Assembly (NCBI GenBank): GCA_965237635.1
Contig: CBDEFX010000002.1
Coordinates: forward strand, 402,554 to 466,553
DNA: 64,000 nucleotides
From: Dehalococcoidia bacterium
Lineage (GTDB): Bacteria > Chloroflexota > Dehalococcoidia > Lucifugimonadales > CAUZJF01
Reading direction: 5' to 3'
Position numbers and translations under genes: made by a program. The notes under the pieces are model-generated. The model worked only from the letters and a program-made list of their open reading frames with translations, made no database searches and was not told the origin of the DNA. This document shows positions 26,520 through 56,381 of this stretch, one piece after another (position 1 is the stretch's first letter; every line of letters starts with the position of its first letter).

Positions 26520-26530
26520 GGACTCCCGCG

Positions 26531-28110: not shown

Positions 28111-28161
28111 GTGGCTGCCTTGGAAACGCCTGTACATCCACAAAACGTGCCTCAAAACGGG

Positions 28162-38340: not shown

Positions 38341-38931
38341 TTAATCTGTGGCGATGTTCCCGAGTCCCGACAGGTGGACCTCCTGGTCCCAAATGAGTCG
38401 GTCGCCTGCCACAATCCGCAACACATCAGGGTTCTTTAGGTCGTCCGCTTGCGCTCTCCCAACGGACTGATCGATGTAGTTAAGGAACAATCCAGTAACG
38501 TTCCCATGTGTGGTGATGCCGATCGTTTTTTGCGGGTACACAGCAAGTATCTGTTTGACTGCCGCCACGAACCGTTCTTGCGCGTCAAGTGAACTTTCGC
38601 ATCCGGGCAGCGCGAAATTGAAGTCGTCCCACGATTGGCGCCATATCTCGTTGAAGTTATCGCCGAAGTTATCGTCGAACTCCTTGACCACCGTTCGCTC
38701 GCGGAGGTCATCCCCGACCTCAACTTCAAGGCCAACTCTATTGGCGAAGGGCTGAATCGTCTGCAAACATCGCGAATATGGGCTTGAGAACAACACCTCG
38801 ATTCCAAGGGGCACAAGCAGGTCGGATAGGTTTTCTGCCTGGTCTAATCCAACCGGACTAAGCGGCCACTCCGAGTCTGGCAGCTTTGCAGACGGTTGGC
38901 TCTGCGCATATCGAATCAGGTAGATATTCAT
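38341..38931 (-). CDS. Histidine phosphatase family protein (RHG motif reads RYA)
   Basis: IYLIRYAQS, PLSPVG..QA, LFSSPYSRCLQT, DLRER, GES, ITTHG. Confidence 0.8.
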   Translation of the reverse strand: MNIYLIRYAQSQPSAKLPDSEWPLSPVGLDQAENLSDLLVPLGIEVLFSSPYSRCLQTIQPFANRVGLEVEVGDDLRERTVVKEFDDNFGDNFNEIWRQSWDDFNFALPGCESSLDAQERFVAAVKQILAVYPQKTIGITTHGNVTGLFLNYIDQSVGRAQADDLKNPDVLRIVAGDRLIWDQEVHLSGLGNIATD

Positions 38932-39034
38932 TTCTACAATGCACCTGCTGTCCGGTAGACGTCAGACACCGTTCCTGCGGGCTCCTCTACGATATCGATC
39001 GGCATCGCATCACTGTTGCTTGGGTACAACCAAC

Positions 39035-39229
39035 TCAATGCTTGTGGATAAGAAGACGCTCAACGAGCCAGCCGGTCATAGTGTTAAGGTATCCTTCGGC
39101 ATATTTGTCACCCACCTTCACTATATGGTTGGCTCCAGCGAACAGCTTGATGGTGTAGTCCCTGTTCCCTCCTTTGTTCAGGGCCTCCTCAAAGGCTGGG
39201 GCAGATTCCACGGAGGAACTGGCAAACAA
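39035..39229 (-). pseudogene. C-terminal fragment, possibly of an alpha/beta hydrolase
   Basis: ALNKGGNRDYTIKLFAGANH resembles the catalytic-His region; no N-terminus. Confidence 0.45.
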
Positions 39230-39257
39230 AGGGGGTCGCTTTGATCCACCCCCTTTT
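39228..39257 (+). terminator. Candidate intrinsic terminator
   Basis: AAAGGGGG...CCCCCTTTT stem-loop. Confidence 0.3.
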
Positions 39258-39308
39258 CGTATCTAGTTGGGTCCCTTCCGCCGCACCCAAACAACTGGTC
39301 ACTTGTTT

Positions 39309-39353
39309 GTCAGACGGGGAGTTAGGCCCTCCCTCTTCTCCACCACGAACACG
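39309..39353 (+). other. attP-like junction, degenerate right arm
   Basis: GTCAGACGGGGAGTT-AGGCCCTCCCTCTTCTCCACCACGAACACG. Confidence 0.65.
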
Positions 39354-39506
39354 AATAAGGAATCGCCCCAGGCATAACTCAATGGGCGGGGCCTGTTGTC
39401 ATCGGTTCGGAGTGTGCTCAGGGCAAGGCAGAATCATGCCCAAAACCACGCCGTTCTGATGGCGCCAGCCGCCTGAGCCGCGACGGCAGTTTCAGACTCT
39501 GACCTT

Positions 39507-39743
39507 TCAGTGGGTTCGCACGGTCTCCTGGTGATGCCTACGCCTGCCGAAGAAGCCGCCTAGCAACAGACCCCCAAGCACCAAGGTGATCCCGATGATC
39601 CCTAACGTAAGTTCTATTTCTCCAGAAACAGGAATAGTAGAGGCGACTACGAGCAACCCAGGTATCGCCCCGAGGGCTGCTCCTACGAGCATCGTTCTTA
39701 TCGCTGCCCGCTGGAGTTGCTGTTTTTCTTGAGAGTTACTCAC
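39507..39743 (-). CDS. Small hypothetical membrane protein
   Basis: Two hydrophobic segments and a basic tail; GTG start assumed. Confidence 0.55.
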   Translation of the reverse strand: MSNSQEKQQLQRAAIRTMLVGAALGAIPGLLVVASTIPVSGEIELTLGIIGITLVLGGLLLGGFFGRRRHHQETVRTH

Positions 39744-39920
39744 CGTTAACCGACCACCAACGCCCAAACGTTGAGCGTCATCTCCGGCTCCAGAGGGAGT
39801 CTTTCTGGTGCGCCCGATTCTACGCCCTACGGTAGCTACGCGGCAAGGCATACCCTTTTTGGAGCAGTCTAAGGCTCCCCTACAGGTAAGCCGGCCGACG
39901 ATCCAGAAGCTCACGTCTAC

Positions 39921-40101
39921 CAAACAACTGACCGTTTCTTTGGTAGTCTCGACATCAGATTTGGTTTAGCTATAGCCTACCCCCTTTTTCGGCCGACACG
40001 CTGCGTGCCCTTGAAGCTGCCAATGAGTTGATAGATACTCCGACCCAGGGAAAGCGATTCATCTGCTCCGGGGTCTAGCTCAATGTCCTCATGTCCCGCA
40101 T
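39921..40101 (-). repeat. 181-bp att-arm repeat, inverted copy of 42780-42960
   Basis: The reverse complement aligns end to end with few substitutions. Confidence 0.9.
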
Positions 40102-40263
40102 GACGGTCGTCTTCCCGTGTCCAAACAATGGGGTAGTTCCGTACCTGAAGAGTAGCTGCCACCGCTCCTGCGTAAAAAGGGGACGTTTTTCTGGCGGGGC
40201 ACCGCATACGACTGAGGTTTCATGCAGGCATCGGATCCGCGGTAGGAAGGGCCGCCCATTCCC

Positions 40264-42435
40264 TTACCCTCGCATTGAAAGGGAGATGCGGTTCCGCTCA
40301 AGGTCCACGTTCAGCACCGTCACGCTCACCTGCTGGTTCACCTTCACTACCCCATGGGGGTCCTTCACGTAGCGGTCTGACAGCTGGCTGATGTGCACCA
40401 GTCCGTCCTGGTGCACGCCCACGTCGACGAACGCCCCGAATGCCGTCACGTTGGTCACCACCCCTGGCAGCCTCATGCCAGGCTCTAGGTCCGATACCTT
40501 CTCTATCCCCTCAGCGAAGCTGAACGGTTCGATCTGGTCTCGCGGGTCGCGGCCAGGCCTGACCAGCTCCGCCTTGATGTCCATTAGCGTCGGCAACCCT
40601 ACCGCGTCGGTGGCAAACTGCTCTACGTCGAGCTTGCCACTCACCCCAGCGTCCCGCATCAGTTCCGCGACCGTGCGGCCCAAGGAAGTCGCCATGGCAT
40701 CCACCACGGCATACCTCTCTGGATGAACGGCAGTGGCATCAAGGGGATTGTCGCTTTCCCTCACCCGTAGGAACCCTGCGGCCTGCTCAAAGGCCTTCAG
40801 CCCCAGCCGTGGCACCTTACGTAACTCCTGCCGAGAGCGGAACGGCCCCTTCGCGTTCCGATAGTCCACGATCGCCCGGGCCAGCTGCGGCCCCAGCCCG
40901 GACACGTATTTCAGCAGCTGCCGGCTGGCAGTGTTCACCTCCACCCCCATCGCGTTCACGCAGCTCTCCGCTACATCGTTGAGCCTCCTCACCAGCGCCG
41001 TCTGGTCCACGTCGTGCTGGTACTGTCCTACCCCAATGGACTTCGGCTCGATCTTCACGAGCTCTGCCAAGGGGTCCATCAGGCGCCGCCCGATGGAGAC
41101 CGCCCCCCGCACCGTGAGGTCATGATCCGGGAACTCCTCTCGCGCGACTGCCGATGCTGAATACACCGACGCGCCGCTCTCATTCACCATCACCACCGGA
41201 ACTCGCTCGCCCAGGTCCAGCCCGCGCACGACGGCCTCTGTCTCCCGGCCTGCCGTTCCATTGCCGATAGCTATGGCTTCAATCTTATACTGCTTGGTCA
41301 GAGCGGTGATTCTCTGGGCCTCCCTCGCCGTTCGCTCATCCCCCAGGTGCAGAAAAACCGTCTCCGAGTGAAGCAGCTTCCCCTGCTGGTCCAGGCACAC
41401 AACCTTACAGCCGGTCCGAAAGCCAGGGTCGATGGCCAGCACGGCCTTCTGCCCGAGCAGCGGCGCCAACAACAGATGGCGCAGATTGCCAGCGAACACC
41501 GCGATGGCCGTCTCATCGGCCCATTCCTTGAGCAGCTTCCGGGTCTCGGTCTCCACTGAGGGCGCCAGCAGCCGCTTGTAGCCGTCCTTCACCGCCTCCC
41601 GCACCTGCTCTGAGGCCGGGCTCTTACCTCTCACGAACCTTTGACAAAGCACGGCCAGCGCCTGGTCCTCCGGCGGCGAGACACGAAGGGATAGGATCCC
41701 TTCCATCTCTCCTCGCAACATCGCCAATACGCGATGCGACCTCGTATCAGTGACCTTCTCATCCCACGCAAAGTAGTCGCGAAACTTTGCCCCCTTCTCC
41801 TCCTTGCCCTTCACCACCTTGGACCGCACAATCCCATTAGCCATGAACAGGTCACGCATCGCCGCTCGCGCGGCCCCTTCCTCACTCACCCACTCTGCCA
41901 TGATGTCTCGTGCCCCTGCCAGCGCCGCACCTTCATCCTCCACGCCCTCATCAGGGTTCACATAGGCCACCGCCGCCTCTATGGGACCGATCGAAGCCTC
42001 CTGTGCCCATAGGGTCTGCGCCAGCGGCGTCAACCCTTTCTCTCGGGCGATGCTCGCTCGCGTCCGGTGTTTGGGGCGATAAGGCAGATAGGCGTCCTCC
42101 AGAGCCGTCAGGGTGTCCGCCGCCAACAGGTACGCCCGCAACTCTTCAGATAGCAGCTCCCTCTCCTGCAAAGACGCCAGGATCGTCTCGCGCCGCTTCT
42201 CTAGCCCTCGCAGCCGCTCGACGCCATCGCGGATCGCGGCGATGGCGACTTCGTCCAGCGATCCCGTCGCCTCCTTCCGGTAGCGGGATATGAACGGTAC
42301 TGTCGCTCCCGTCTCGAGCAGCGATGCGGTTGCTTGCACTTGCCAGCCAGGCAAACCCAGCTGTCCAGCGATCGTCGTCTCGTGTACTGGGGAGAGCGTT
42401 GTGGTCGTGGGCTCTTGCACTTCTTCCACGGTCAC
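40264..42435 (-). CDS. tex: Tex family transcription accessory protein (YqgF + HhH + S1)
   Basis: GATVPFISRYRKE, AIDPGFRTGCK, IAIGNGTAGRET, SIGVGQYQHDV, FGAFVDVGVHQDGLVHISQL. Confidence 0.95.
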   Translation of the reverse strand: MTVEEVQEPTTTTLSPVHETTIAGQLGLPGWQVQATASLLETGATVPFISRYRKEATGSLDEVAIAAIRDGVERLRGLEKRRETILASLQERELLSEELRAYLLAADTLTALEDAYLPYRPKHRTRASIAREKGLTPLAQTLWAQEASIGPIEAAVAYVNPDEGVEDEGAALAGARDIMAEWVSEEGAARAAMRDLFMANGIVRSKVVKGKEEKGAKFRDYFAWDEKVTDTRSHRVLAMLRGEMEGILSLRVSPPEDQALAVLCQRFVRGKSPASEQVREAVKDGYKRLLAPSVETETRKLLKEWADETAIAVFAGNLRHLLLAPLLGQKAVLAIDPGFRTGCKVVCLDQQGKLLHSETVFLHLGDERTAREAQRITALTKQYKIEAIAIGNGTAGRETEAVVRGLDLGERVPVVMVNESGASVYSASAVAREEFPDHDLTVRGAVSIGRRLMDPLAELVKIEPKSIGVGQYQHDVDQTALVRRLNDVAESCVNAMGVEVNTASRQLLKYVSGLGPQLARAIVDYRNAKGPFRSRQELRKVPRLGLKAFEQAAGFLRVRESDNPLDATAVHPERYAVVDAMATSLGRTVAELMRDAGVSGKLDVEQFATDAVGLPTLMDIKAELVRPGRDPRDQIEPFSFAEGIEKVSDLEPGMRLPGVVTNVTAFGAFVDVGVHQDGLVHISQLSDRYVKDPHGVVKVNQQVSVTVLNVDLERNRISLSMRG

Positions 42436-42779
42436 ACCCGGAACACCGTCGTGGTGCGAGTACCTGTACTCAGCCTAATCTCCGTGGCATTGTTCGTATC
42501 TCCTACCGCTCCCACATCGACACCTTTCGTTCCGGCAAATCTTACCGAGTTGTCGGTTGATCAGAAAATCCTGAACCCCCTGGCCTGCCCCCGATAATTG
42601 TACCGGTGTTCATGTTCGGACTGACACCAGCGTCAGCACCATACGGCTCGTGCTTGCCACAAGGCCTTGCTGAGAATGACTATCCAGCAGCGGTTGGTGC
42701 CTGACCATGTTACAAGGATTACCTTCTGGCAACCGCTCGTCAGATAGCTGGACGGCGAGACGGAGTACAGCTGCCGGTG

Positions 42780-43142
42780 ATGCGGGACATGAGGACATTG
42801 AGCTAGACCCCGGAGCAGATGAATCGCTTTTCCTTGGTCGGAGTGTCTATCAACTCATTGGTAGCTTCAAGGGCACACAGCGTGTCGGCCGAAAAAGGGG
42901 GTAGGCTGTAGCTAAACCAAATCTGATGTCGAGACTACCAAAGAAACGGTCACTTATTTGTCAGACGGGGAGTTTGGCCCTCCCCCGTCTCCACCACGAA
43001 CACGGGGATCAGTCAGCCTCTAGTAAGCGACTCACGTCGACGGCGCCGAGTGTAGCAAATCCAAGTCCTTTTGGTACGGCTGATATTACGGCTCGTGGTA
43101 GCTACGACGCAAGACGGCCCCCTTTTGGAGCATAGGTACTAT
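42780..43142 (+). other. attP-like junction between two stacked islands, both arms present
   Basis: 181-bp left arm + GTCAGACGGGGAGTT-TGGCCCTCCCCCGTCTCCACCA + ~150 bp right arm near-identical to 30010-30175 and 56143-56310. Confidence 0.75.
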
Positions 43143-44881
43143 CCGGGATTCCCCATATGGGCAGTCTCCAAGCTCAAAGGGCAATCCAAACGAGATGGTG
43201 GCATCATAGTCAGGTCCTGCAAGGCCAGTCAAACTCCGGTCTATCCAATAAGGGATGCGATTCTCGCCGTGAACCATGCTTCTTGTCCGTCTTTGTCGTC
43301 TTCGGCTCCCCGCCAGTGGGGTGAAAGCGCATTGAAGACAAGCCGACTCCCTGGAGCGCTCTCCCTCTTGGCTAGATCGTGGTTGTAGCCTCCCTCAGCT
43401 GGGCGCCGGCGATAACCGGCCGATACGATCCAACACTCCCTGGAACAACCTTCGAGGAACCGACACCTCGGACAACTGAAAGATCAATCGACGGGAGTGC
43501 CGCACCAGACGGCCTCCCATCTTGATCAGCTTGACCTGCACGCTCCGCAGCGACCAGTGCTTGACGGCCTTGGGCAGGCACAGCCGCCGAAGGAAGTTCC
43601 CAAGGTTGTACGCCAGGACGAACAGAGACAGACGCACCCGGTTGGCCACGAACCGATGGCACGACAGCCGAGTCCAGTTCAGCGCGTACTTCCCCTCTTT
43701 GATCCACTGCTCGGCTGTCCCTCTACCATTGTAGAATCGCACCACTCCTTCGGGGCCAGCCGTCATGTTCGTGACGATGAAGCCCACCCGAGGGAACAGC
43801 TCTCCCCTATGCCACTCCACCTTGGCCACCACACGCCGAGCGCGGTCCCAACTCCCGGCACGATACCAAAAGTCATCGTACAGGATCACCGGACGTTTCG
43901 GTGGCCTCCCCACAGGTCGTATCAGCAGTGGAGCGATCTCGTATTGCAGCACCTTGTTGCTCGGCAGCCGTATGGCGTAGAAGACTCGCCGCTCCTCTAG
44001 GTACTCATAGATGTCCGGCTTAGCGAATGCGGCGTCGGCGCGAAAGTACCGTCGCACTCCTCCGTAGCGGGACAGGATCGGATCCAATACATCACGCCAC
44101 CTGTGCGCGCTAGGTACGTTCCCCGCACGCAGCTTGGCGCCCTCGCAGTCCCCGAACTGGTTGAACACGAACAAAGGGTGATAGCACGTGCTCCCATAGT
44201 GACCGTTGTACGACGCTCCCTCCTGTTCTCCATGTACCGGACTCTCCGAACTGTCCATGTCCAAGATCACCCGCCGGTGCGGCGTGCGGGACATAGCTCC
44301 ATCCACCCACTTAGCGTTCAGTCGGCCCAACCCTTCCACGTTGCCGTCTTGGGTGAGCACCTCGGTCTCGAACCGGCTCATGGTGTTGGTGCTGGCGGCC
44401 GGTCTTTCAGGACCACCTCGCCGTCCAACGATGATCCGCATCGTCGGGTCCTGGGCCAGCCGTTCAGCGTCGTTGGTATCCTCGTAGCCTGCCAGACGAC
44501 TGTACACCGACTGCCTGAGAAGGCCCATCAATCGGTGCTGCACGTTACGACCGCCCCGACTCTCCTGCAGACACTCATTCGTCGTCTCCGTCAGTCCCAG
44601 CGCATCATCCAACTCGCGACAGGCCAACAGTCCGGCGTCCGAGGTGATGGTAGCGCCACGAAACTCCAACCGTACACGTCGGTCGAAACGGAGCTTGGCG
44701 CGGGGGTTGGTGCTTTCACCCATTGGGTGCCTCCAGAGTGGGTACGTAATCAAGAACTAGAATAGTCGATCACGACCAGTCTAGCACTCATGATAACCAC
44801 TACGCTCTCCTATTCGGCTACATTAGGTAGTTCCGTTGCTGATTACGGCAAGCCCTGCAGGGTTGATATGGGAAATGTGGG
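43143..44881 (-). mobile_element. IS1380-family element, second type
   Basis: Imperfect IRs CCCACATTTCCCATATC / CCGGGATTCCCCATATG, 1739 bp; no matching TSD. Confidence 0.75.
43395..44723 (-). CDS. IS1380-family transposase
   Basis: ITSDAGLL, LAGYEDTNDAERL, LDMDSS, FRADAAFA, FYNGRGTAEQWIKEGK. Confidence 0.93.
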   Translation of the reverse strand: MGESTNPRAKLRFDRRVRLEFRGATITSDAGLLACRELDDALGLTETTNECLQESRGGRNVQHRLMGLLRQSVYSRLAGYEDTNDAERLAQDPTMRIIVGRRGGPERPAASTNTMSRFETEVLTQDGNVEGLGRLNAKWVDGAMSRTPHRRVILDMDSSESPVHGEQEGASYNGHYGSTCYHPLFVFNQFGDCEGAKLRAGNVPSAHRWRDVLDPILSRYGGVRRYFRADAAFAKPDIYEYLEERRVFYAIRLPSNKVLQYEIAPLLIRPVGRPPKRPVILYDDFWYRAGSWDRARRVVAKVEWHRGELFPRVGFIVTNMTAGPEGVVRFYNGRGTAEQWIKEGKYALNWTRLSCHRFVANRVRLSLFVLAYNLGNFLRRLCLPKAVKHWSLRSVQVKLIKMGGRLVRHSRRLIFQLSEVSVPRRLFQGVLDRIGRLSPAPS

Positions 44882-45850
44882 ATTGAACGTCTCCTCTGCG
44901 ATGGCTTCTTCGAAGGTGCGCGCCTCAAAGTTGCGCCCTGACAGTAGAGCGACCAAATCCGCCAAGCGCCCACGACTGAACTTCGACGTAAACGTCACGC
45001 GAAGCATGTTCGTGTAGGAAGGGTTATAGAGATCGTCCTTCTCGTTCTTCAGCCACTCCATTGCACGGAAGTAATCGGTGGATGCGAAAACATCGTCCTT
45101 GGCCATATCGCTGTAGGCTTCCGGAGTAACGGCGAGATGGCAGAAGTAGTCGATGGCCTTTCTTAGCAGGTGGCCGTCATGCTCTTCGTTGGCGGCCATC
45201 TTGGACATTGCGAAGTCCGCTGCGTTCAGCGTGACACCCTGGCGGTTTACGCGAACGAAAATCTCGGCGGCAGCCTCCACGTCCAAATCGGCGTCCAGGT
45301 CAATGAGACCCAGAGAGTTGTTCTTGATACCGGCAAGTTGCCTTATGCTGTCGTCGACTTGGCGTTCACTGGCGTCAGAATTCGACTTGCAGTACTCGGC
45401 CACAATCTGGCTCATCCACGCTTCAGGAGTAAAGAAACTTGCGATGTCAGCGATCCATTCCCGATCCCGGCGTATGGCGGCGTTGGCGACCTCAAAGCGT
45501 CTCTCGATGGGATGGAAGGCTATGGTGATCCGCGTACGCTTATAGTCCTTCGTAACGACCTGTTGTCCAAGCAAGGCGGCCAGCAGGGCCGTCACGCGCT
45601 GCTGGCCGTCAATCAAGATGCATTTCCCTGTAGATCGTGTGCCGTCCTTCAGTCGTACATCAGGGTTCTGCCAGGTGATGAGATACCCCACGGGATAGCC
45701 GTTATAGAGTGAATCGATAAAGTCACGCACATCGGCTGCGTTCCAGACAAAGGGACGCTGGATATCGGGAATGGCGATGACGTCAGACTTGATCCAAGTG
45801 ATCAGGGTCTCGATAGGATGCTGATTTACCGAGTAACGTTGAATCGGCAT
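44882..45850 (-). pseudogene. DUF262 (GmrSD-type) protein truncated by IS1380
   Basis: [36 protein letters not shown]; the frame runs into the IS terminus. Confidence 0.88.
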
Positions 45851-45940
45851 CTCACTCCTCTGCTATTTTTCAGTAGCTTGCTAGATTGCACCATTTTCAG
45901 TTTGGCCCTTCTCCCGTTTTTTTGGAAGTACCTGTCCTGA

Positions 45941-45995
45941 TGTCGCAAGTAGTGTCGTGAGCCTGTCGCAAGTTTTGGCACAAGTTTGTCGCAAG
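45941..45995 (+). repeat. Five helically phased 9-bp direct repeats (TGTCGCAAG consensus)
   Basis: Copies at 45941, 45953, 45964, 45976, 45987; three perfect. Confidence 0.8.
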
Positions 45996-45996
45996 A

Positions 45997-47043
45997 TCAG
46001 GCAATCCCGTCCGCGAGGACGTATTCAAGCCGGTTCGTGCTGCCCCGGCGGAGAAGCAATCCCTTCTCCATCAGCCCCCTGAGGTCACGTTGGAGCGTAC
46101 GGCGCTGGATTCCTGGACACAGATGCTCGAACTCGCCAATGGTAACTCTGCCGGATTCCAGCACATGACGAAGGGCGAGCGCCTGTCGATCCGTCAGGTC
46201 GTGCCGGCGAGCGAGGATGTCCTGCTGAATCGCCAACTCTCCCCGCCGCTTGACCTCGGCGAGCTGGGTGGCAAGGCCGATGGCGAAGAATTCGATCCAA
46301 CCTGTCATGTCCATGTTCGTCCGCCGTACGCTCTGGAGAGCATTGTAGAAGGCCATGCGGTCCCGGTCGTAGTATTCGCTGATGGTGAACAGCCGCTTGA
46401 AGTCGTAGCCCGCCCGGTAGAGACACAAGGTCGAGAGGAGCCTTGACGTGCGGCCGTTGCCATCGAGGAAAGGATGAATGTGAACTAACTGGAATTGGGC
46501 GATCCCACTTGCAATGACAGGATGTATGTCGCTTGGTCGATTCAGCCAACTAACGAGCTCGCGCATGAGGATAGGCACGTCGTCCGCCGGAGGCGGAGTG
46601 TATATCGTTTCGCCGGTCGCTGAGTTGACGACATAGTTCTGGACACGCCGGTATTGCCCCGGTGCGGCTGACCCCCCACTGACGCCGGAAACCAGATGCC
46701 TGTGGATATCAAGGATAAGCCTCTCAGTGATTGGACCGCCATCGTTCAGGTACGTGCTGACGAACTCGAAAGCGTCGCGGTAGTTGAGCAGTTCGCGCGT
46801 GTCGTCCGGGTCCGCCCCGGGAACATCATCGCCCGCCAGAAGGTCTGCGGCTTCCTCAATGGTAAGGCGGGTCCCCTCGATATGCGTCGTATGGTGCGCT
46901 TCGAGAAGGAATGCCCGTGAGCGCATAGAGTCTATCCACTCATCCGACAGGCTCGCAGCATCGAGGAACCCGCGGGCGCGCTCAATCTCGGTGAGGGCCG
47001 CTGCGATTGCGTTCGTAATGGAGAAGTGCGGAGTGAATCTCAT
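45997..47043 (-). CDS. Fic family protein with C-terminal HTH
   Basis: Canonical [23 protein letters not shown]-terminal [11 protein letters not shown]. Confidence 0.92.
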
Positions 47044-47063
47044 ACTGCCTTCGTCATTCTGTC

Positions 47064-50000
47064 CTACACCGACACCACCGTATCGGTGTCTCCCGCGGCG
47101 AAGGCGTTCATGTAGGCGAGAATGAGATCGCGTGTGCGGTAGGAACCGAACGCGGCTTCGTCCTGTCGGCGGACTATGGGGAAGGTCTCGAGCACGTAGC
47201 CCGCGTCCTCCCTGGATAGTCCATAGAGGTGGAAGTGGAGCGCGTCGAGCCGCGCCCTCAGGTGGCAGCGTTCCTCTTCATCCCAGATGAAGGGCGGGCC
47301 GTCGTACCCGAGGTCACGGGCGAATGGGGCCATGTCGTTGGCCGTGTAGGTGAGCCGAAGCACGTGGTCGCGAACGAGGTCGCGGGCCGTCCTGTCGCCG
47401 AACCGCTGATCGTAGCCGTGGGCCGCGATCACTGGGAGTTGTTCGAGGATGAACCAGTTGAGGTGCTGTCCTTGTACTTTCTGTCTAGCCACAAAGTCAA
47501 AGGGAAGGGAATTAAGGCACGCGGCTAGTAACCACGCGACGTCCTTGTATCGGGCTACCTCAACTGAATCAGGTATCAGGACTGGGAAAGTGTTGCCAAA
47601 GGCCGCCGCCGGTAACAGCGCTGCAATCATAGTCCGCACGTTCGTGGGTGCGGTCACGTCCTTGAAGCCTACCGTCCATCCCAACTCCTCGGGCCACTCG
47701 AATGAGTCCGCGCCGACCCAGAACTGGGGCTCCGGTAGCCAAGCCGGGTTGGTGTGCTCTGAGAGGCTGGCCTCTCGTGGCTGAGCCGGCCTATTCAGGT
47801 TCTCAGGGTTGACGACCACGCTGGCGGCCCGGTGGTCAAACGCCTGCACCATCTTGCCCTCATACAGCGGCACAAACAACTCCTCGCCCCGCTTCCAGCA
47901 GTTGCCCTGGACGGGGTAGAAACCCGCCGAATCGAGCTGCGCCGCCGTCCGAAACAGGTGTGAGTCGTTGGTCATGTCGAACATGCGCACGTACCGCACA
48001 GGCCACGCTTTGCGCTCCTCGCCCTGTGAGCGGTCGACCAGGACTGGATGCCGCTCGTAGATGCGCCGGGTGATCTCCGCGTCCCGCCGCGTGCGAAATA
48101 TGGGCGCGGTGCCGGTGTTCGGGTTCACCCGCGCGAAGTCCGAGGGGGCCAGGGGGAAGCAACGGTTCGGGTCGCTGATGGTTTCGATATCGTGTAGGAA
48201 GAAGGCGCACTGGGTCTCTTGGAACCGCCGCTCCGCACCGCCGAATATCAGGGCGCAGAACTTGAACCGCGAGTCCACGTCGGGGAAGAAGTGCGTCAGC
48301 CCTGAACCAGGACGGCGGTTCTCAAAGTCGAAAAGCCCGGCGACGCGTCCGCTGGTGGAGACGGACTTGAAGAAGTCAGCCGCCGTCTTGTCGGCGTAGA
48401 TACCCGACGGCGTGAGCAGCCCCACGAATCCGTCCGGCTTGATCAACCCCATGGCGCGCTCCACGAATAGCGAATAGAGGTTGATGTCGCCGCCGCTCAG
48501 CAAGGGATAGTTCCCGGACGCGCGAACCGACTCGCCCAGCTTATCTGCTCGCTCCTTTGCATCGTCGAATTCATCCGCCAGAGGCGCTCCCTTGTCACGA
48601 AGTTGTTGAATGCCGGTTTTCCGCGCGGCCGCTGTCGGGGCCAGAGCCAACTCCGGTGAGCGCGTGGAGAACCACTCCACCTCTTGGAGTTTGATGCGGT
48701 CCCACGGCGGGTTGCCGATGACGGCGTCGAAACCGCCAACCGGTTGTTCTTCCTGCCACCGCTGCCAAACGCCGGGGAAGGCCGCCTCCCAATGCAGGAA
48801 GCCTTCGCGATCTGCGATGTACCGGGAATCGCTCCACAACTTCTTGAACCCTGACCAGGAAGTGTCACCGCCGCCAGTCTCTTCGTCCCCAACGGCGTCA
48901 GGACCCCGCGCCAGGAGACTGTACGCATCGTTAGGCCGACTACCTAGGGTTTCAACAAGAGGAGTCTCGAGCGCGGCGTGCGCTTTCCCCCTCATGTCAG
49001 AGGTCAGCCAGCGCAGGCCGCACAGGAAATCAAGCAGGCCTCGAAGGTCGGCCGTCGTGTCCTCGACTCCACGGAATAACTCGGCCGACTCCCGCACCTC
49101 CGCAACGTCCGCGTCTGACATCTCCTCTATGCGCTGCATCCCACTGGTGGCGGCCTCCGCGCTGGCTATGGCGGAGCTTGCGAACAGCCCCCCAAGCCGG
49201 TTCAACTCCGCCGTGGCCTCCGGAACGCGGAGACCGACCAGGGAGTCGCCGCAGCGCAGGTGGTGGTCCAGGAAGGAGAGGGGAGCGCCAACGGTGAAGC
49301 TTTGCAACCACAGCGACACCTTCGCCAGCTCAACGGTCAGCGGGTTCTTGTCCACGCCGTAGATGCAGCGTTTCAGGACCATCCGCCGGATGATGGATTG
49401 GTCGGTCAACTGGGCCTCGTCCATGACCCAATTCGACGCTTGGGCTCGCTGGAGGATGTCCCGCCGAATTGCCGCCACCCGCTCCACGAGAGGGGAGGAG
49501 TAGTCGCCGTCCAGCCACTCCGGCACCGCCGGCGCGTACTCCGCTACCTCCGTAATGTAGTCCGATAGGAAATCGACGGCGGTGACCAGAAAGTGACCGC
49601 TTCCCATCGCCGGGTCCAGCACCTTCAGGTCGAGCACCGCTTCAGCCGGGTCCACCGCAAGCAACTAGGCATGTCGCTCGGGGATGGGACGATGGTCGCT
49701 CCCCAACTCATTCGACTTGTCCTCGAACGCCTTCAGTCGCTCTTCGGCCAGCGGTTTCAGAGTCCGGTCGACGATCAGGTCGACGAGCTCTTGAGGGGTG
49801 AAGAAGCTGCCGCTGTCCTTGCGGGCGTAGCTGTTGGGACGCACTACGATCCCGCCATTGTCGTCCCGGACAGGCTCGCGTTCCAGGAGCCTCTCGTAGA
49901 TGGAGCCCAGCTGCTGCACGGACATGTCCCGGTAGTTGACGAAGTGGCGTGCGCCCTCTGTCTCCGTGTGGCTCAGGTCATAGATGATGTCGCCGACGAT

Positions 50001-51119
50001 CTTGTCCGTAAGGCGGGCCGTCTTGAGCAATGGAGCGGCTTCAGACGCAAACAGGCCGCCGTTGTAGGGCGGCAGACCGATGGACTCGTCGCCCTCGTCG
50101 ATTTGGCGGAACAGCGTCATCAGGTGGTCGTAGTAGCTAGAGGCGCTGGCGGAGAAGACGGCGCTGCCTTGCATCCTGTGCGCCACGTGGTCGCGGACCG
50201 GCTTCCGCAAGCCGTAGTCTTTATATCGCGGGTCGTTTACCGGAAGCAGCCCCCGGTCCTCGGCGTAGAGTACGAAGAGCAGCCGGTAGAGAAGGATGAG
50301 GGCTGCGTGACGGACGCGTGACAGATCTTCGCCGGTGGCGTCGGCCAGGGCTTGCACCAGCTTGGGAAAGACCCTCTCGAATACGACGCTGGACAGGTCC
50401 TGGGCCACCTTCTCCTCGTACCGCCTCCCCTGGGCTAGCGCCGCTTCCAGGAAGCTGGTCGTGGCCCCCTGCTGCGGGGTGAAGGAATCGCGGCGGAACA
50501 GCAGGTAGAAGAGGCGGAACCCGTCCTCGCCGCTGGACCCCAGCATCTCTCCGAAATGGGCCTCGAAGTAGCCGGTGGCGCGTGGGCGGGCGCGGTAGTC
50601 ATAGAGACGCCACAGTCCCCCGTTGGTCAGGAATCCCCACCGGATACGGCTCTCCGACTCGATGTCAGCCGTCGAGAGGTACCGCAGAATCTGGCCGTGG
50701 GGCGTCCTGGATTGGCGTCCGGTGTCCCTGTCGCGGGCGTCGAGGGAGAGACCGAACCGCTTGCTCTCCTCCACCACGATGGCGTCCCGGAATCGTTCCT
50801 CAGGGTTGGCTCTCCCGGCGGCGCGCTCCTTGGATGCGGCATCGGTGAAGAGGAGATAGTCCGGGATGTCCTCGTTGCGGGTTGTCCCCTGCTGGGGAAG
50901 GTAGTCGGCCCATCCCAAGAGCTCCAGGACCGGGCGAACCAGCTCCTGCTCGGTGACGGCCTCGTTGGGGCCTTCGGAGCCGCTCAGCGCGTCGTAGCGT
51001 TGACGAACGCCATCCCGAAATGCGGCAAATGCCGTCGAGCCCGAGATGGACGCGCGCCACTCGGCGGTCGCCTTTATGCCTTCGGTCAGGAAGTAGTTCG
51101 TGAACAGATTGCCGGGCAT
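47064..51119 (-). pseudogene. Type IIG (Eco57I-like) restriction-modification enzyme with one in-frame TAG
   Basis: N-terminal PDYLLF..EESK nuclease, GSFFTP, LDPAMGSGHF, NPPW. ORFs 49665-51119 and 47064-49664 are in frame, separated only by TAG at 49665-49667. Confidence 0.88.
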
Positions 51120-51148
51120 GTCAGTTCCTAACCGCCGGTTTCATGCCA

Positions 51149-51490
51149 TCACTCCAAGAGGACATTGATCTTCTCCAGCGCCTCCCCGACAACCTGCCGT
51201 GGGGCATGGCTCTCGAAACGGGCGCGTCTCGCCCGCCAGTCCAGGCTCTTGACCTGGTCGGCCAGCACAACTCCCGAGACGCTGCTTGTCGCGGGGAGGA
51301 GGACTTCAAAGGGGTATCCCTTGACTCTTGACGTAATCGGACAGAAGAGCGCCAGGCTGGTCTTCTCGTTGTATTCTTCCGGGCTTAGGGTCAGGGCAGG
51401 CCGGCGGCCAGCCTGTTCATGCCCAGCCTGGGGCGCGAAACTCAGCCACACGATGTCCCCCCTTGCGGGAACATACTCCCGGTCTACCAT
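51149..51490 (-). CDS. mazF: MazF/PemK endoribonuclease toxin
   Basis: RGDIVWLSFAPQAGHEQAGRRPAL, CPITS..KGYPFEV, ADQVKSLDW. Confidence 0.93.
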   Translation of the reverse strand: MVDREYVPARGDIVWLSFAPQAGHEQAGRRPALTLSPEEYNEKTSLALFCPITSRVKGYPFEVLLPATSSVSGVVLADQVKSLDWRARRARFESHAPRQVVGEALEKINVLLE

Positions 51491-51723
51491 TCTTCGTTGC
51501 CCCAGGCCGGACCGGAGTCCTGCTCGGAATGAAGATTGTCGGGGCTCATCTGGGCCAGCATGCTGACCAAGTCATAGGACCTCTTCCGCAATACGACTTG
51601 GTCGCCCCGAGGAACAATCTCTATAGCCGAGCCTTCCTGGACGCCCCACTGCTCGGCGATGGGCTTGGGAATCCGGACGGCCAGGCTCGTGCCCCACTTG
51701 GAGATATGCGACTTCGCACCCAT
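51484..51723 (-). CDS. mazE: MazE/AbrB antitoxin
   Basis: KWGTSLAVRIPK, GNEEW end; ATG behind AAGGAGG with TATAAT upstream. Confidence 0.92.
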   Translation of the reverse strand: MGAKSHISKWGTSLAVRIPKPIAEQWGVQEGSAIEIVPRGDQVVLRKRSYDLVSMLAQMSPDNLHSEQDSGPAWGNEEW

Positions 51724-51939
51724 GTGAGCACCTCCTTTTACATACATATTATATATCATGGTTGAGTGTCCGTACCAGATAGCGATCCCCCCCAATTCTT
51801 GGGAGGCTGACGAATACAGGGAGATAGAGAGAGTAGTGCTGATACCAGTCAAATGCTCCGAGCGACGACCGGCCCCAGTTCCCCGTCACCCTGTTCGTCG
51901 TGGACACAGAGGACGTTAGGGGCCACCTTGCTGAGCCGG

Positions 51940-52254
51940 GGTCACGTCCCGTCAAGTGGTGTAAGAGTGCGTCATCCTGTTGATGTTGTTTAGGCGGCAG
52001 TCGCCTCCGCGAGATCGGCCTCTGGAAGAGCTTCGTTGAAGGTCAGCGCGACAGGTGCGATGTATCGACGGCCAACGGCCCATTCGTCGTGCTGCTCAGC
52101 CAGGACGGCGCCAACGAGGCGGCGCACGGCCGGCTGGTTAGGGAAGATGCCCACCACATCGGTGCGTCGCCGGATCTCCTTGTTGAGACGCTCCTGTGGG
52201 TTGTTGGACCAGATCTTCTTCCAGTGGGCGAGTGGGAAGCTGGAGAAGGCCACG
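51940..52254 (-). mobile_element. IS256 element A 3' fragment (diverged)
   Basis: Right IR GGTCACGTCCCGTCAAGTGG plus [28 protein letters not shown]. Confidence 0.88.
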
Positions 52255-52394
52255 GAATTTGGCGCCATAGCTAAGGCGTTGCAACACCGGTGGCCCAGTA
52301 GAGGCCCAGGTTCGGCCAAACGTCCGGGGGGGGACCAGTTGCACTCGCCCTCAGGGGCGGGTGAGGATTGAAACTCCGAGTGGGCGGAGCGCAA

Positions 52395-52555
52395 CCCCAA
52401 ACTCTACGCCGTCCCCGGCCACATGGCGCTGTCCTGGATTGGATCGCGGATGTGCCAGCGGAGCAACTCTTCGTGTCTGCCGTTACGGTTGGAGAGATAC
52501 AGGCAGGGATCGAGATCACCCGTGAGCAAGATGAGGCCAAGGCAGAGGAGTCATG
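52395..52555 (+). pseudogene. VapC/PIN toxin internal fragment
   Basis: LRRPRPHGAVLDWIADVPAEQLFVSAVTVGEIQAGIEITREQD. Confidence 0.75.
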
Positions 52556-52599
52556 CACAGAAGGTCGGACACTATGACCGAAGACGCCATAATTGGGTC

Positions 52600-53040
52600 G
52601 GACTCGATGAACTGATGGTAGCGGCTGCGCCTCCACGCGGCAAGCTGCGCCCACCACTGCGGCACCGGAAGTGATACGACGGGTGGCGTATAGCGCCGTC
52701 AGCACGCCGAGAGCCGCCAGGCCGTAGGAGTCCGAGGACCAGCTCCGGGGCAGCATACTCCCCAGATAGCCAAGGTACCCCTCCGGCAAACGGTTGTGGC
52801 CGCAACCGCGCCCACTGTGTAGGTCAGCATGTTTCGCAGCCAGCGCCCCATCCTCATCACCGCCGTGTCTGAAAGGGGGCCATGTTGAGGATCATCGAGA
52901 GCCCGGGTACGGAGTGGTTGACCGACAGCCCTGCGATCAGGGCCACTATGAGGAAGACCACGTAGTGGACGATATTCAAGGTGCCCAGGCCCGTTACGGC
53001 GCCCAGCGCGAACGCGAATCCCACCGATGACGCTCGCGCC
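52600..53040 (-). pseudogene. Frameshifted membrane protein remnant
   Basis: Hydrophobic stretches in different frames (VGFAFALGAVTGLGTLNIVHYVVFLIVALIAG; YGLAALGVLTALYA). Confidence 0.4.
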
Positions 53041-53399
53041 CTCCACGACGAAGGAACTATGTCCTCCGGCCGCTGCGGATCGAACGGCAGTATGGCTTCC
53101 TTCAGCGGGGACGCGCTGCCTCGGCCTGAGTCTCAGCATCTCCCGTATCCTGCGTCTGATGGATTGGGTAGGGACGGCGCGGAGCTGGTCGCGCTGCCCG
53201 CTGACTAGGTGCTGATCCGAAACGCAAAGGGCGGCCATCGTATTGCACGGTGGTCGCCTCTGCTCGTTCATCTATATGTGGGCCTTTTCTTGTTGTCAGA
53301 AGGGCCACTCGGGCGGTCCACAAAGACGAACACACTCACAGCATGTGCGCTTAGCTTCACAGGAGAGGCCGGAAGGCGTGGCTTTCCAGGAAGGCACGA

Positions 53400-53539
53400 T
53401 CAGTGACCGAAAGGAGAGATGGGTGGTGATGGTCAAGGGACAGGTATCGAGGTGGGACGGTACGGTGAACGTGATGGTCTCAGACGTGAAAACCGTCCGT
53501 TCGGGCGTCCAGATACCGGAGTCCCATGACTTGCACTGA
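53400..53539 (+). pseudogene. Possible 3' fragment of error-prone DnaE2 polymerase
   Basis: VMVKGQVSRWDGTVNVMVSDV...PESHDLH* resembles the DnaE2 OB-fold and SRDFH-type tail. Confidence 0.4.
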
Positions 53540-53684
53540 CAAACCTATCCGGGAGTGGTCAGCCAGGCCGTCGGCCTGCGCGGGAGCGTATAGATTGACA
53601 GGCACTCGGCAGGGCGCGAGGTTGGCTAAACTCTGTGAACGTGTGTCTCGGTAGGGGCGACCACAAGCCCTACTCCACCTATTC

Positions 53685-54149
53685 CTACCTTCCGTACCAT
53701 GGTGAGTCCGGTGACTGCCATACGGTCGTGCCACTTGAGCCCATCCTTGGCCAGTCCTCGTCAAAACAGACGATTTCCATCACCTGCAACGAATGCCCTG
53801 GGGGCAGATTGGTTGTCAGATCACTGGACCCAGGCTGGCCATACATGACGGACATCACGGGCTGCCCCTCGGGATAATGGCCGTCGGCGTTCTCACACCA
53901 GTTCTTGTCCAGGTCAGGCCCGGCCGTCGCAACGGCGTGCCTGAAGGGTGAGCGCATAGCCGGGATAGATCGGACACGGTGGTCGGCTGCTTCCACCGGC
54001 TCTCCGCCGGAAGTATGGGCCACAGAACCTACCGGCAATATGGACTGATCGGTCCCAGAGTTCCAGGGCTGAGTCAGCCAGACGGCTGTAGCCAGTAGCA
54101 CGACCACGGCCACCGCTGATACGAGCGCACGTACGCCGATCCTGTGCAT
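53685..54149 (-). CDS. Hypothetical exported protein
   Basis: AGGAGG RBS, N-terminal hydrophobic anchor, 154 aa. Confidence 0.6.
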   Translation of the reverse strand: MHRIGVRALVSAVAVVVLLATAVWLTQPWNSGTDQSILPVGSVAHTSGGEPVEAADHRVRSIPAMRSPFRHAVATAGPDLDKNWCENADGHYPEGQPVMSVMYGQPGSSDLTTNLPPGHSLQVMEIVCFDEDWPRMGSSGTTVWQSPDSPWYGR

Positions 54150-54197
54150 GTGAATCCTCCTTCTTTCCCCCTACAGGCCATCTGAACCTCGGAACGT

Positions 54198-54302
54198 TCA
54201 GTCCTTCGGCTTCATCCCAGAGTCGAGCTCGGAAGGGCGTTTGATGTCCGACTCTCCCGACTGCGTTTGTCTGAACTCTCGGATCGCCTTGCCTAGTGCG
54301 CC
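54198..54302 (-). pseudogene. TatA-like 3' fragment
   Basis: GALGKAIREFRQTQSGESDIKRPSELDSGMKPKD*; the transmembrane N-terminus is missing. Confidence 0.5.
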
Positions 54303-54545
54303 AAGTCCCTGATCAGCATCCAACCCAAGTCGGCCGATTGACCATCGTCACGGATAACGCGCGTACGCAGGAGTTGCTTCGCTGGGCTCTGTCCGCCTCG
54401 CGCCACGATCAGGTACCAGATGACCCAGCCGATACCGAGTGTGAGCACGAAGAGGAACCCGTCCAAGACGGCACCGGCAAGTCTGCGACCTTGGCTGGCA
54501 AGCTCAGCGTCATTGCTCTTCACGTCGCCTTCTCCTACAGCTCCA
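54293..54545 (-). pseudogene. RDD family protein fragment
   Basis: LASQGRRLAGAVLDG...GQSPAKQLLRTRVIRDDG...MLIRD. Confidence 0.7.
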
Positions 54546-54643
54546 GTTTGAATTTCAAGCTGAAAGTTCTCGATTTTGTCAAGTCTGGTGGGCCTAAGTT
54601 GACGGTAGGCAGAACCATCTTCGAGATGTGGATGGGGCTGTAG
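54545..54643 (+). other. Recombinase 3'-end scar with tRNA-Ile-like att core
   Basis: Reads LDFVKSGGPKLTVGRTIFEMWMGL*; core TGGTGGGCCTAAGTTGAC at 54586-54603. Confidence 0.6.
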
Positions 54644-54723
54644 TCTATCACGCCACTGTCTGGGCGACGCCATGGGGCCATGCTCTCCAGGCTAGTTTAT
54701 TTGGCTGACCGGACCGTTCAACC

Positions 54724-55341
54724 CTAGCGGCCCGGCGACAGCAGCTCGTTGGCGTACTTCGGAACGAACGTCTGCCTTGTGACCTCAACCTCCGAAATGC
54801 CGCCAGTTCGATAGGTAGCACATTCGGAGGAGCCGGCCTCGCAGGCATATAGCACAACATTGCCGCCGCGAGCCTTGCGCAGTGAGTATGGCTCCACCCT
54901 TTGCACGTCCCCCTCGTAACCCACGTCGACACACAGCCTGTTGGCAGCAGCAAAGTGAATGCGCTCCAGAGTGGAGGCGTTCATGCCCAGGTCCTCAACG
55001 GAGCCACCGCCCAGGCCGACGTCGCGAACTGAGCCGCCCTGGTCCACGGCGCGCCCAGACCCGATCGACCGCTGCCTTCGCCCAAGGCGCGCCCTGGGCA
55101 GGTCCGCCGCAGAGTTGAACGCCTGGGGGGGTACCGTGGCCCGGGCCACCGCTGCCTCCGCCCAGGTCGTGGTCCTGAGCTGAGCCGCCCTGGTCCACGA
55201 CGCGAACTGGCCAGCCCCACCGATGCCGCGGCCGGCCCCACCGATCGCCCTGGACCAGGCCCAGGTCCTCAATGGAGCCACCGCCCAGGTCGTGGTTGTG
55301 ATCTGACCTGCCAGCACCGACCCGCTGATCTCGTACTGCAT
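54724..55341 (-). CDS. WYL-domain protein with repeat-rich N-terminus (possibly frameshifted)
   Basis: IHFAAANRLCVDVGYEGDVQRVEPYSL...VLYA...YRTGGISEVEVTRQTF. Confidence 0.65.
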   Translation of the reverse strand: MQYEISGSVLAGQITTTTWAVAPLRTWAWSRAIGGAGRGIGGAGQFASWTRAAQLRTTTWAEAAVARATVPPQAFNSAADLPRARLGRRQRSIGSGRAVDQGGSVRDVGLGGGSVEDLGMNASTLERIHFAAANRLCVDVGYEGDVQRVEPYSLRKARGGNVVLYACEAGSSECATYRTGGISEVEVTRQTFVPKYANELLSPGR

Positions 55342-55929
55342 GGTGTAGTAGATATATACTTACCCAGAGGCAGAAATCCACCCATTAGATATTGCATGCA
55401 CCATTGCATGTTTGCATTTCTGGAGCTCTTCGACCGCCTATTCGCCTTTCGGCTAACCGCCTATTCCGTTCAACTGAGCGTGTCCAGCGATCTCCCTTCG
55501 ATCGCCTTGATGCTCGGTATCATTGTGGTGGGTCTCGTCGTGGCCCGGGCCACGGTGCGCCTACACGATACCCCTACAAGGAGAGTTGCATGTCCAACCG
55601 CGACGGAATCCTAGACTCGCGGTGGTGTTTGCGGTACCTTCGAGAGCGTTGAAAAACCCGCGTTGTGGCCCGGGCCACATCCCCTGCAAAGGAGGGGCTA
55701 CATGTCCAACCGCGACGGAATCCTAGACTCGCATCCTTCGTTGCGCGTCAAAATACCGCCGGAGCTGGCGGCCTTCGACCGATGAGACGCCGATCCGAAC
55801 GACCTGGCGAAGTGGGAGGCGGCTATGGCGGCCTTTGCCCCGGCCTTGGCCCCGGCCGCCGGAGCCGACAATTCCAACGCCAATCACCGCCATCTCTCCA
55901 CCTCCATTGTATTCAGCTTATTACTGGTA

Positions 55930-56071
55930 TCGAACGGATAAAGTCCGGCTAGATCTCGCTAACACGGCATCTAGCACACATACTGGCCATGATGCCCATG
56001 TAAGCGGCTCACATGGGCGCTACTCTTACCGGATTACGACGCTCTCACGCGGCTGATCTGGGAAATGTGGG
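55930..56071 (-). mobile_element. Terminal relic of an IS1380-like element
   Basis: Ends in GATCTGGGAAATGTGGG, similar to 44760-44881. Confidence 0.4.
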
Positions 56072-56142
56072 GTAGGACAAATTGCCAACGCCACCGCCAA
56101 TCTCTAAGCCAGCAAGTCGAAGCTCGTGTTCCAAGTGTAGGT

Positions 56143-56381
56143 AGGCCCTCCCCCGTCTCCACCACGAACACGGGGATCAGTCAGCCTCTAGTAAGCGATT
56201 CACGTCGACGGCGCCGAGTGTAGCAAATCCAAGTCCTTTTGGTACGGCTGATATTACGGCTCGTGATAGCTACGGCGCAAGACGGCCCCCTTTTGGAGCA
56301 TAGGTACTATAGCAGGTGCGGAACAGCAGGCTGGGGCGGTGCTTCGCTATGGCGGGTGGAACGGACAGGACCGAGCCGTAG
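56143..56381 (+). other. attL-like site and right arm of the second recombinase module
   Basis: AGGCCCTCCCCCGTCTCCACCA followed by ~240 bp near-identical to the reverse complement of 29937-30175. Confidence 0.75.

Follow-up and report, generated by a model that had tools for sequence, protein, structure and literature searches.

Candidate recombination sites of ssrA-specific islands in a defence region far from ssrA in a Dehalococcoidia bacterium

The stretch considered here, called the window throughout, comprises 64,000 nucleotides of a Dehalococcoidia bacterium (assembly GCA_965237635.1, 4.43 Mb in two contigs, C1 and C2) and corresponds to C2:402554-466553; positions given without a contig are those of the window. 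It contains defence-type genes, insertion sequences (IS), two copies of a gene for a large serine recombinase, and four copies of a short motif resembling the 3' end of ssrA, the gene of the transfer-messenger RNA (tmRNA). A preliminary description took these copies for attachment (att) sites of a single island family, which would have integrated repeatedly into its own earlier att sites or into secondary sites and so built the defence region by accretion. Here, we characterize the motif copies, the recombinases beside them, and their relatives in other genomes.

Motif copies, the host ssrA, and the adjoining recombinases

The 15-mer CCCCCGTCTCCACCA is found exactly at 30154-30168 on the reverse strand and at 42982-42996 and 56150-56164 on the forward strand of the window; a fourth copy, CCCTCTTCTCCACCA at 39331-39345 (forward), has two mismatches (13/15). 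These four matches compare with 0.30 expected, and none of 100 shuffles reaches four. The longer arms containing the motif start at 39309, 42960, and 56143, as described previously, and the inverted copy at 30154 was also confirmed. Mapping over the whole genome, proposed at the same time, yielded 14 exact copies of CCCCCGTCTCCACCA on both contigs and both strands, compared to one for the reversed control pattern. Thirteen core copies are ectopic and occupy at least eight loci, some on C1 and others up to 650 kb away, and the block common to the copies exceeds the 15-mer, reading GGCCCTCCCCCGTCTCCACCACGAACACG(G).

Neither ARAGORN nor Rfam detects a tRNA or tmRNA gene in the window, in agreement with the preliminary description; the only Rfam match is a group II intron, and a permissive Rfam scan of 38900-43200 for a partial tmRNA gave no match whatever. 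The sole good tmRNA match of the genome (152.9 bits) lies at C2:751003-751355, ∼285 kb past the window end. The 3' end of this gene reads ...CTTCTGGACGGGGAGTTCGACCCTCCCCCGTCTCCACCA, and its final 15 nt are identical to CCCCCGTCTCCACCA, so the resemblance to an ssrA end suspected earlier proved to be identity. The core CCCTCCCCCGTCTCCACCA corresponds to C2:751337-751355 of the tmRNA gene and also matches the repeat primer published for the ssrA islands of Dehalococcoides, TGGTGGAGACGGGGGAGGG (PMC3146451), the primer being the reverse complement of the core found here. At the level of sequence the link is proven: the motif is the 3' end of ssrA. A distance of 292-319 kb separates the window sites from ssrA, upstream of which they lie, and one of them is inverted. 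A decayed tmRNA gene to the left of the sites was ruled out by ARAGORN and Rfam, and the conserved CTAAGCCTGTAG block is not there; the 50 nt upstream of the T-stem-like arms described below resemble 22 Dehalococcoidia tmRNA ends as much as shuffled sequences do (z ≤ 1.8).

An inverted repeat of 2.07 kb (28110-30183 and 56135-58202, 98-99% identical), which covers the gene of the large recombinase, terminates in the motif copies at 30154 and 56150. The genes of the two modules are as follows:

25624-26295, forward strand: ParB_N protein, integration module, copy A
26531-27499, forward strand: coiled-coil protein, 322 aa, with only weak coiled-coil/SMC-like matches
27499-28110, forward strand: dsiA-like small serine recombinase, 203 aa, Resolvase domain
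28320-29936, forward strand: dsiB-like large serine recombinase, copy A, 538 aa, with Resolvase, Recombinase, and Zn_ribbon_recom domains
56382-57992, reverse strand: dsiB-like large serine recombinase, copy B, 536 aa, intact
58203-59563, forward strand: IS256-family insertion (Transposase_mut) between dsiB copy B and the dsiA remnant
59571-60011, reverse strand: truncated dsiA-like resolvase fragment of the copy B module, in island GI_z

The catalytic motif YLRVSSxSQ of the large recombinase is intact, and the protein appears to be of the CcrB type, with an NCBIfam match below threshold. Both window copies possess the three domains and converge on the core, the stop of copy A at 29936 preceding the core start at 30154. 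Six full copies exist in the genome, 98-100% identical, each 0.2-3.3 kb from a core and all away from ssrA. Two truncated remnants, a gene at C1:766426-766860 and 174 nt of non-coding sequence at 42969-43142, also abut cores. The genome further encodes a recombinase of a second clade (33% identical), whose alignment at C2:235079-236527 ends 13 nt from the core copy at C2:236540. The right flank of this second-clade copy, ACTCCAAACTTTC (C2:235079-236554), is identical in the loci L056, L060, L066, and L074 of sister genomes, and in one sister genome, G401, the second-clade recombinase abuts the real ssrA.

We searched the window recombinase against 400 other genomes of the class and fetched the loci with 1.5-kb flanks. 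Twenty fetched loci carry a recombinase with 48-66% identity; some come from genomes assembled as one contig of 1.4-2.1 Mb, where three copies follow one another. The recombinase directly follows a tmRNA 3' end (...CTGGACGGGGAGTTCGAC[CT]CTCCCCCGTCTCCACCA) in 15 of these loci, and the outer motif behind the core is GAAACAC, CGAACAC, CAAACAC, or a close variant. The remaining five comprise one island-island joint, one truncated locus with a poor chance match, and three truncated loci without a core. Among eight loci with 36-40% identity, four follow a tmRNA end, after which comes ACTCCAAC or a near variant, as at the second-clade copy; the other four have no core within the fetched flanks. Judging from these positions, both recombinase clades appear to target ssrA, and the outer motif is a conserved feature of the family.

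Three sister genomes of the same family (G401, G402, and G403; 4.2-4.8 Mb) each contain 5-7 copies scattered over several contigs and over both strands, and the far-end arm recurs there; in G401, a four-site array is located on a contig other than that with ssrA. The real ssrA of two sister genomes ends and then continues with CGAACACG or ACTCCAAAC. The seven copies of a Dehalococcoides-like genome share one orientation and keep within 116 kb of ssrA, in line with the published description.

We consider it highly probable that the four motif copies are recombination sites of ssrA-specific islands of the DsiB/DsiA type, which are integrative mobilisable elements. The idea of one island family with its own recombinase is borne out by the adjoining module, the copies throughout the genome, and the relatives. 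The recombinase is assigned to DsiB by the published description and by its homologues after tmRNA ends.

Architecture of the sites

The four sites of the window, with our reading of each, are:

S1, 30146-30190, reverse strand: left arm GGCTGTGGTGGAGTTAGGCC, CT, core CCCCCGTCTCCACCA, and outer motif CGAACACG; probably the recombinase-end joint of truncated island A
S2, 39287-39353, forward strand: T-stem-like left arm (GGTCACTTGTTTGTCAGACGGGGAGTTAGGCC), core matching at 13/15, then CGAACACG; apparently a decaying joint
S3, 42938-43004, forward strand: T-stem-like left arm, exact core, then CGAACACG
S4, 56125-56172, forward strand: complete dyad, the left arm being the probable far end of island GI_y

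S4 forms a complete 48-bp dyad, CGTGTTC CAAGTGTAGGTAGGCC/CT CCCCCGTCTCCACCA CGAACACG, and the general form of the sites is GTGTTC-N14-CC/CT-N16-GAACAC, ∼48 bp. Counted outward from the C/T axis in CCCT, GAACACG occupies positions 18-24 in both halves of S4. GTGTTC stands exactly 14 nt to the left of CCCT in all seven sites of this genome with an S4-type arm, and the same 14-nt spacing is observed in nine sites of G401 and G403; the Dehalococcoides-like island-island joint also keeps it, as GTGTTT...GAAACAC. S1-S3 retain only the inner symmetry of the dyad. Across all copies, the four central bases are CCCT, CTCT, or CGCT, with CT invariant, and from the symmetry of the sites we infer that CT is the crossover dinucleotide. 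The structure of an A118-type integrase predicts a pseudo-palindromic attP of ∼50 bp with 25-bp half-sites and outer motifs bound by the zinc ribbon, the outer motif of attB being shifted 5 bp inward relative to attP (Rutherford 2013, PMC3783163).

The island half-site is the same as the ssrA half-site over the 15 nt up to CCA, and the best left arms also copy AGTTCGACC of the T-loop, so that the block of attP/attB identity is long, up to 26 nt. Because of the half-site match, a rebuilt ssrA end or a joint could stay a target. According to the mechanism we propose, the large recombinase, with DsiA as its likely small partner by analogy with CcrA/CcrB, would exchange strands at the central CT between the attP of the island and the T-arm/acceptor end of ssrA. 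With the island half-site P' equal to that of ssrA over 15-17 bp, the rebuilt ssrA end would remain usable, each newcomer would insert beside the last one, and every joint would consist of the far end of island n, the core, and the near end of island n+1.

The slot between the core and the recombinase module is variable, 85 nt, 0.5 kb, 1.3 kb, or 3.1 kb, the window copies having only 85 nt. The longer variants are:

C2:1237474-1238009: 0.5 kb, with a small membrane open reading frame (ORF)
C1:1026999-1028285: 1.3 kb, with an ORF of exonuclease-type look (judged by eye)
C2:1189681-1192780: 3.1 kb

The core with CGAACAC(G) is constant throughout these variants, and therefore CGAACACG would belong to the site and not to a neighbouring gene. 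At the variant site C2:1192781-1192795 (CCCCCGTCTCCACGA), the left-hand outer motif, CGCGTTGT, and the right-hand one, CGAGCGCG, both depart from the canonical form and do so correspondingly, which hints at co-variation of the half-sites.

Between dsiB and the core, we also observed a conserved element of ∼75 nt (GCTCCAAAAGGGGG..CTTGCGTCGTAGC..N..TA[AG]AAT..CACCAGAAGGACT), always facing the core. Its copies are:

30019-30094 and 30423-30497, forward strand
39798-39866, ∼43045-43142, and ∼56213-56313, reverse strand
C2:100953, C2:1398944, and sister genomes

The element looks like a -35/-10 promoter, and a simple promoter scan flags only the 39846-39817 copy (9/12). A genuine promoter here would drive transcription through the joint, so that co-oriented genes at the far end of the following island, or of the circle, would be read.

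Several observations weigh against our assignment of the sites. The arms of S1-S3 lack the outer GTGTTC hexamer, so recombination at these sites may be inefficient or no longer possible. The 5 bp to the left of CCCT are mosaic (TTCGA/TTCGG/TTAGG/GTAGG), which crossover at CT alone does not explain. Inspection by eye revealed no sign of the zinc-ribbon motif lying 5 bp further inward in attB than in attP. In Dehalococcoides, dsiB overlaps attL at its 3' end, while here it stops 218 nt before the site. Finally, the Mom homologue of Dehalococcoides, with its tRNA-like locus, is located ∼4.4 kb from attL (PMC3146451), and a Mom-embedded pseudo-tRNA was not found here by ARAGORN in the window or by Rfam at E ≤ 1 in 21000-30400; the corresponding position is occupied by the 322-aa coiled-coil protein.

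Islands of the P4 type with a tyrosine integrase are the usual users of tRNA and tmRNA 3' ends. The sites could then be relics of such islands, with the serine recombinase genes as bystanders, a reading we find very unlikely. It draws on the long attP/attB identity and the mosaic T-loop positions, as in the overlap region of tyrosine-type sites, and on the ssrA locus itself (C2:751003-767660, L017), which bears its own 16-kb stack without any dsiB. Proceeding from ssrA, the stack consists of:

first, a 13.3-kb segment with a P4-like tyrosine integrase, MFS/TetR genes, a STAND NTPase, and three IS copies
second, a displaced older ssrA-like end (GGAGCTCGACGCTCCCCCGTCTCCACCA), then CGAACACG and a 2.9-kb mini-island with a DEAD-box helicase gene
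third, a degenerate repeat, then a second copy of the ssrA downstream sequence

On both sides of the stack stands a repeat of 76 nt (83% identical) that includes the ssrA end/terminator region, and the integrase of the stack is P4-like in domain content (Arm-DNA-bind_3, Phage_int_M, and Phage_integrase). However, no relative of this integrase was detected in the window, and its seven genomic paralogues are 9-400 kb from any core, the distance being 4.4 kb at the ssrA locus only. By contrast, two clades of serine recombinases abut the core, both here and in dozens of other genomes, and a dyad of 48 bp whose outer motifs are separated by 34 bp is consistent with the attP of a serine integrase rather than with tyrosine core sites.

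A probable array of islands in the defence region

All four window sites have an island-type right half with CGAACACG, and none has an ssrA-type left half (TTCGACC plus upstream tmRNA sequence). The preliminary description had assigned both arms to the sites at 39309 and 42960; there, GACGGGGAG indeed stands before the motif and completes a T-stem-like hairpin with it, while the left arms at 56143 and 30183 are different. The left arms of S2 and S3 (39309 and 42960), GGTCACTTrTTTGTCAGACGGGGAGTTwGGCC, are copies of one 45-190-nt segment, which is also present at C1:766194 and, more diverged, at C2:1238010; the sequence of both sites folds as a T-arm-like hairpin. The site at 56143 had been regarded as attL-like, which did not hold: its left arm (CGTGTTCCAAGTGTAG...) is an island far end, symmetric to the right arm, making S4 an island-island joint. 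The 1.8-kb module that ends in this arm recurs to the left of recombinase copy C (C2:1134822) and also 16-17.7 kb inside another island, E, on the side away from its recombinase, and therefore the left arm of S4 is a far end. The left arm of S1 (30184) is unique in the genome. The unique flank beside S1 contains a 235-aa ORF without a family match, in which 30631-30894 is a perfect 132-nt tandem duplication; a C-terminal recombinase remnant was sought in this flank by tblastn, with none at E ≤ 10.

Genome-wide, the short recombinase-side flank pairs with three classes of left arms. Conversely, the CGTGTTCCAAGTGTAG left arm pairs with three right flanks, as does the third left-arm class (GGATACCCC...CGTGTTCCAGGTGTAG). 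Homology between the copies always breaks within the 29-nt shared block or at its edge. We read this shuffling of arms as the signature of site-specific exchange at the core. It also bears on the possibility that the motif is a structural or regulatory element of the module, such as a terminator hairpin or a tRNA-like decoy, carried passively with the 2-kb repeat. Such an element would fit the T-arm-like hairpin at S2 and S3 and the fact that all window copies but one are on the 2-kb repeat or a remnant of it, but the core is also found where the module is missing and next to a variety of flanks, homology breaks exactly at it, and it is identical to ssrA, the same position in relatives being occupied by the real ssrA end. 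We regard this explanation as very unlikely.

Given their arms, all four sites are in our reading island-to-island joints of a headless array. In the forward direction, the order is S2, the tex island GI_x, S3, the defence island GI_y, S4, and GI_z with dsiB copy B; island A is inverted at S1. The components of the array between S2 and S4 are:

39354-42937: GI_x, a recombinase-less 3.6-kb island, with tex at 40264-42435 on the reverse strand
43005-43142, forward strand: remnant of a recombinase-proximal island end, 97-98% identical to copies A and B and cut off at the IS start
43395-44753, reverse strand: DDE_Tnp_1_4 transposase of an IS that stands in place of the GI_y integration module
44843-51119, reverse strand: GI_y cargo, comprising a GmrSD_N (DUF262) protein, a Fic protein, and an MmeI/Eco57I-like type IIG enzyme as two ORFs
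54301-56124: far-end module of GI_y, 1.8 kb

The interval from S3 to S4 (13.1 kb) has both family-typical ends and would therefore be one island, GI_y. The tex gene of GI_x is single-copy here and present in only two of 25 relatives, and thus is accessory. The arm segment stands on either side of tex in two inverted copies of 191 nt (39914-40104 and 42777-42967, 94% complementary), and the inverted copy beside tex diverges right after ...GGTAGACG, 16 nt short of the expected core start.

Island A (dsiB, dsiA, the 322-aa gene, and ParB) matches island E over 5.9 kb, the extra sequence in A being an IS and a 0.9-kb stretch with a ParB-like gene that E does not have. The match ends at 21652, inside a coding sequence and without any att-like sequence, and to the left of this point lie the type I restriction-modification genes (13734-21206). 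As there is no att site at 21652, this block would have been joined to island A by something other than the recombinase. Hence accretion accounts for only a part of the defence region: the cargo is largely defence-type, as had been proposed, but the restriction-modification block does not conform.

The array has decayed by IS insertions, deletion of the integration module at S3, mutation of the S2 core, and breakage of dsiA in GI_z, and its edges are truncations and IS junctions, not att sites. The IS256-family element has ∼35 copies in the genome, and several IS are found inside the window islands; this high load makes rearrangement plausible. The 10-mer ACGGGGAGTT mostly represents one repeated DDE_Tnp_1_4 coding sequence, with dozens of copies among the matches listed, and we take this element to be the 1.7-kb IS. 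Two inversions were considered. One between the inverted IS copies 22547-24279 and 31018-32744, as the cause of the orientation of S1, was rejected, because the sequences on the two sides of the first IS adjoin each other directly in island E, which makes this IS a simple insertion; one between the two recombinase modules would give an equivalent arrangement and leaves the missing head unexplained.

In addition, the region of S4 and dsiB copy B is flanked by repeats of another family, whose T-arm is tRNA-like (ACGGGGAGTTCGAGCC...GGGCCTAAGT...). This family may represent further att sites. Its copies are:

54589-54643, 61274-61328, and 60950-61026 in the window
C1:1097139 and C1:1231598 elsewhere

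Origin of the array and comparison with known island systems

We lean, with some reserve, towards an array that was built at ssrA and later displaced by rearrangement or re-inserted. The truncated edges, the IS load, and the head-to-head layout of S1 versus S2-S4 point in this direction. A possible but less favoured alternative is that the array was seeded and grew at its present, ectopic place, a circular attP having recombined with a resident attP-like island-island joint independently of ssrA. The 13 ectopic core copies at no fewer than eight loci and the position of all six dsiB genes away from ssrA suit this alternative, as do the same dispersal in G401, G402, and G403 and the G401 array off the ssrA contig. 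Furthermore, the modules are 98-99% identical, which suggests recent multiplication within the genome, recombination of attP with attP has been reported for CcrA/CcrB and for the A118 integrase, and the P_a/dsiB joint, the would-be landing pad for GI_y, is present elsewhere, at C1:766194. However, serial insertion at ssrA followed by displacement produces all these patterns equally well, the edges of the array are not att sites, and the first seeding is left unexplained, with no secondary-target arm found. Both readings predict every junction type, and therefore the sequence does not decide between displacement and growth in place. Empty sites for the left flanks of S1 and S2 were sought in the sister genomes, with no syntenic match.

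The suggestion that the islands integrated into earlier att sites or into secondary sites thus stands in part: stacking, or accretion, is known for the family, but no site has a chromosomal or secondary-target left arm. A wider proposal, which we consider rather unlikely, is that DsiA/DsiB of this family of IS-rich Dehalococcoidia with large genomes accept P-P' joints, so that ssrA-island arrays could seed, grow, exchange modules, and invert DNA anywhere, without dependence on ssrA, the promoter-like element reading across the joint and coupling the far-end genes to the joined state. Islands with ssrA-specific serine recombinases are known as dehalogenase carriers strictly behind ssrA in Dehalococcoides, whereas here their sites are spread over the genome. 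If joints are targets, this would explain the modular assembly of defence islands at places without a tRNA or tmRNA gene, and the three left-arm classes and several right flanks would provide a natural set of site variants for CcrB-like recognition; if the array has merely been displaced, it is an ordinary relic of a known family.

Similar to the phage serine integrases A118/LI, Bxb1, and phiC31, the system has a putative pseudo-palindromic attP of ∼50 bp with 25-bp half-sites, and GAACACG at positions 18-24 fits this scheme (PMC3783163). Unlike in these phages, where attP and attB share little beyond the central dinucleotide, identity here extends up to 26 nt. The staphylococcal cassette chromosome elements (SCCmec/SCC, with CcrA/CcrB) likewise pair a CcrB-type recombinase with a second serine recombinase, target the 3' end of a single-copy housekeeping gene, are flanked by short direct repeats, and form composite or tandem elements. 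Their target is rlmH/orfX and their phylum is another one, while the second recombinase here has only 203 aa. The mycobacterial prophage-like element phiRv1 reportedly has a serine integrase that uses the repeated REP13E12 as multiple attB sites. The use of several alternative chromosomal sites of one repeat family is common to both cases, but the repeats belong to the host there and are the islands' own joints here.

The closest system is that of the Dehalococcoides ssrA-specific genomic islands, which stand in tandem behind ssrA and are bounded by a 20-bp repeat of its 3' end (McMurdie 2011, PMC3146451). Their published module, on the reverse strand beside attL, comprises DsiB (540 aa, CcrB-like), DsiA (200 aa), a RecF-like protein, ParB, Mom, within which a pseudo-tRNA lies, and a protein of 700 aa; it is missing from some islands, and the paper speaks of accretion (PMC3146451). 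Shared with the islands described here are the ssrA-end repeat of 19-20 bp, the ∼540-aa recombinase on the strand opposite to ssrA, the ∼200-aa serine recombinase, the ParB gene, and the occurrence in both of tandem islands, not all of which have an integration module. The copies in the 1.4-2.1-Mb genomes, which are of Dehalococcoides/Dehalogenimonas size, share 57-61% identity with the recombinase found here. On the other hand, all repeats in Dehalococcoides are within 100 kb downstream of ssrA and in one orientation, while here they lie ∼290 kb away on its upstream side and on both contigs and strands. No island is duplicated within a Dehalococcoides strain, compared with six modules 98-100% identical here, and the cargo consists of restriction and other defence-type genes instead of reductive dehalogenases. 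Thus, the island family is already known, and what is new is its ectopic, headless, multi-copy state, its defence-type cargo, and the clear dyad architecture of its sites.

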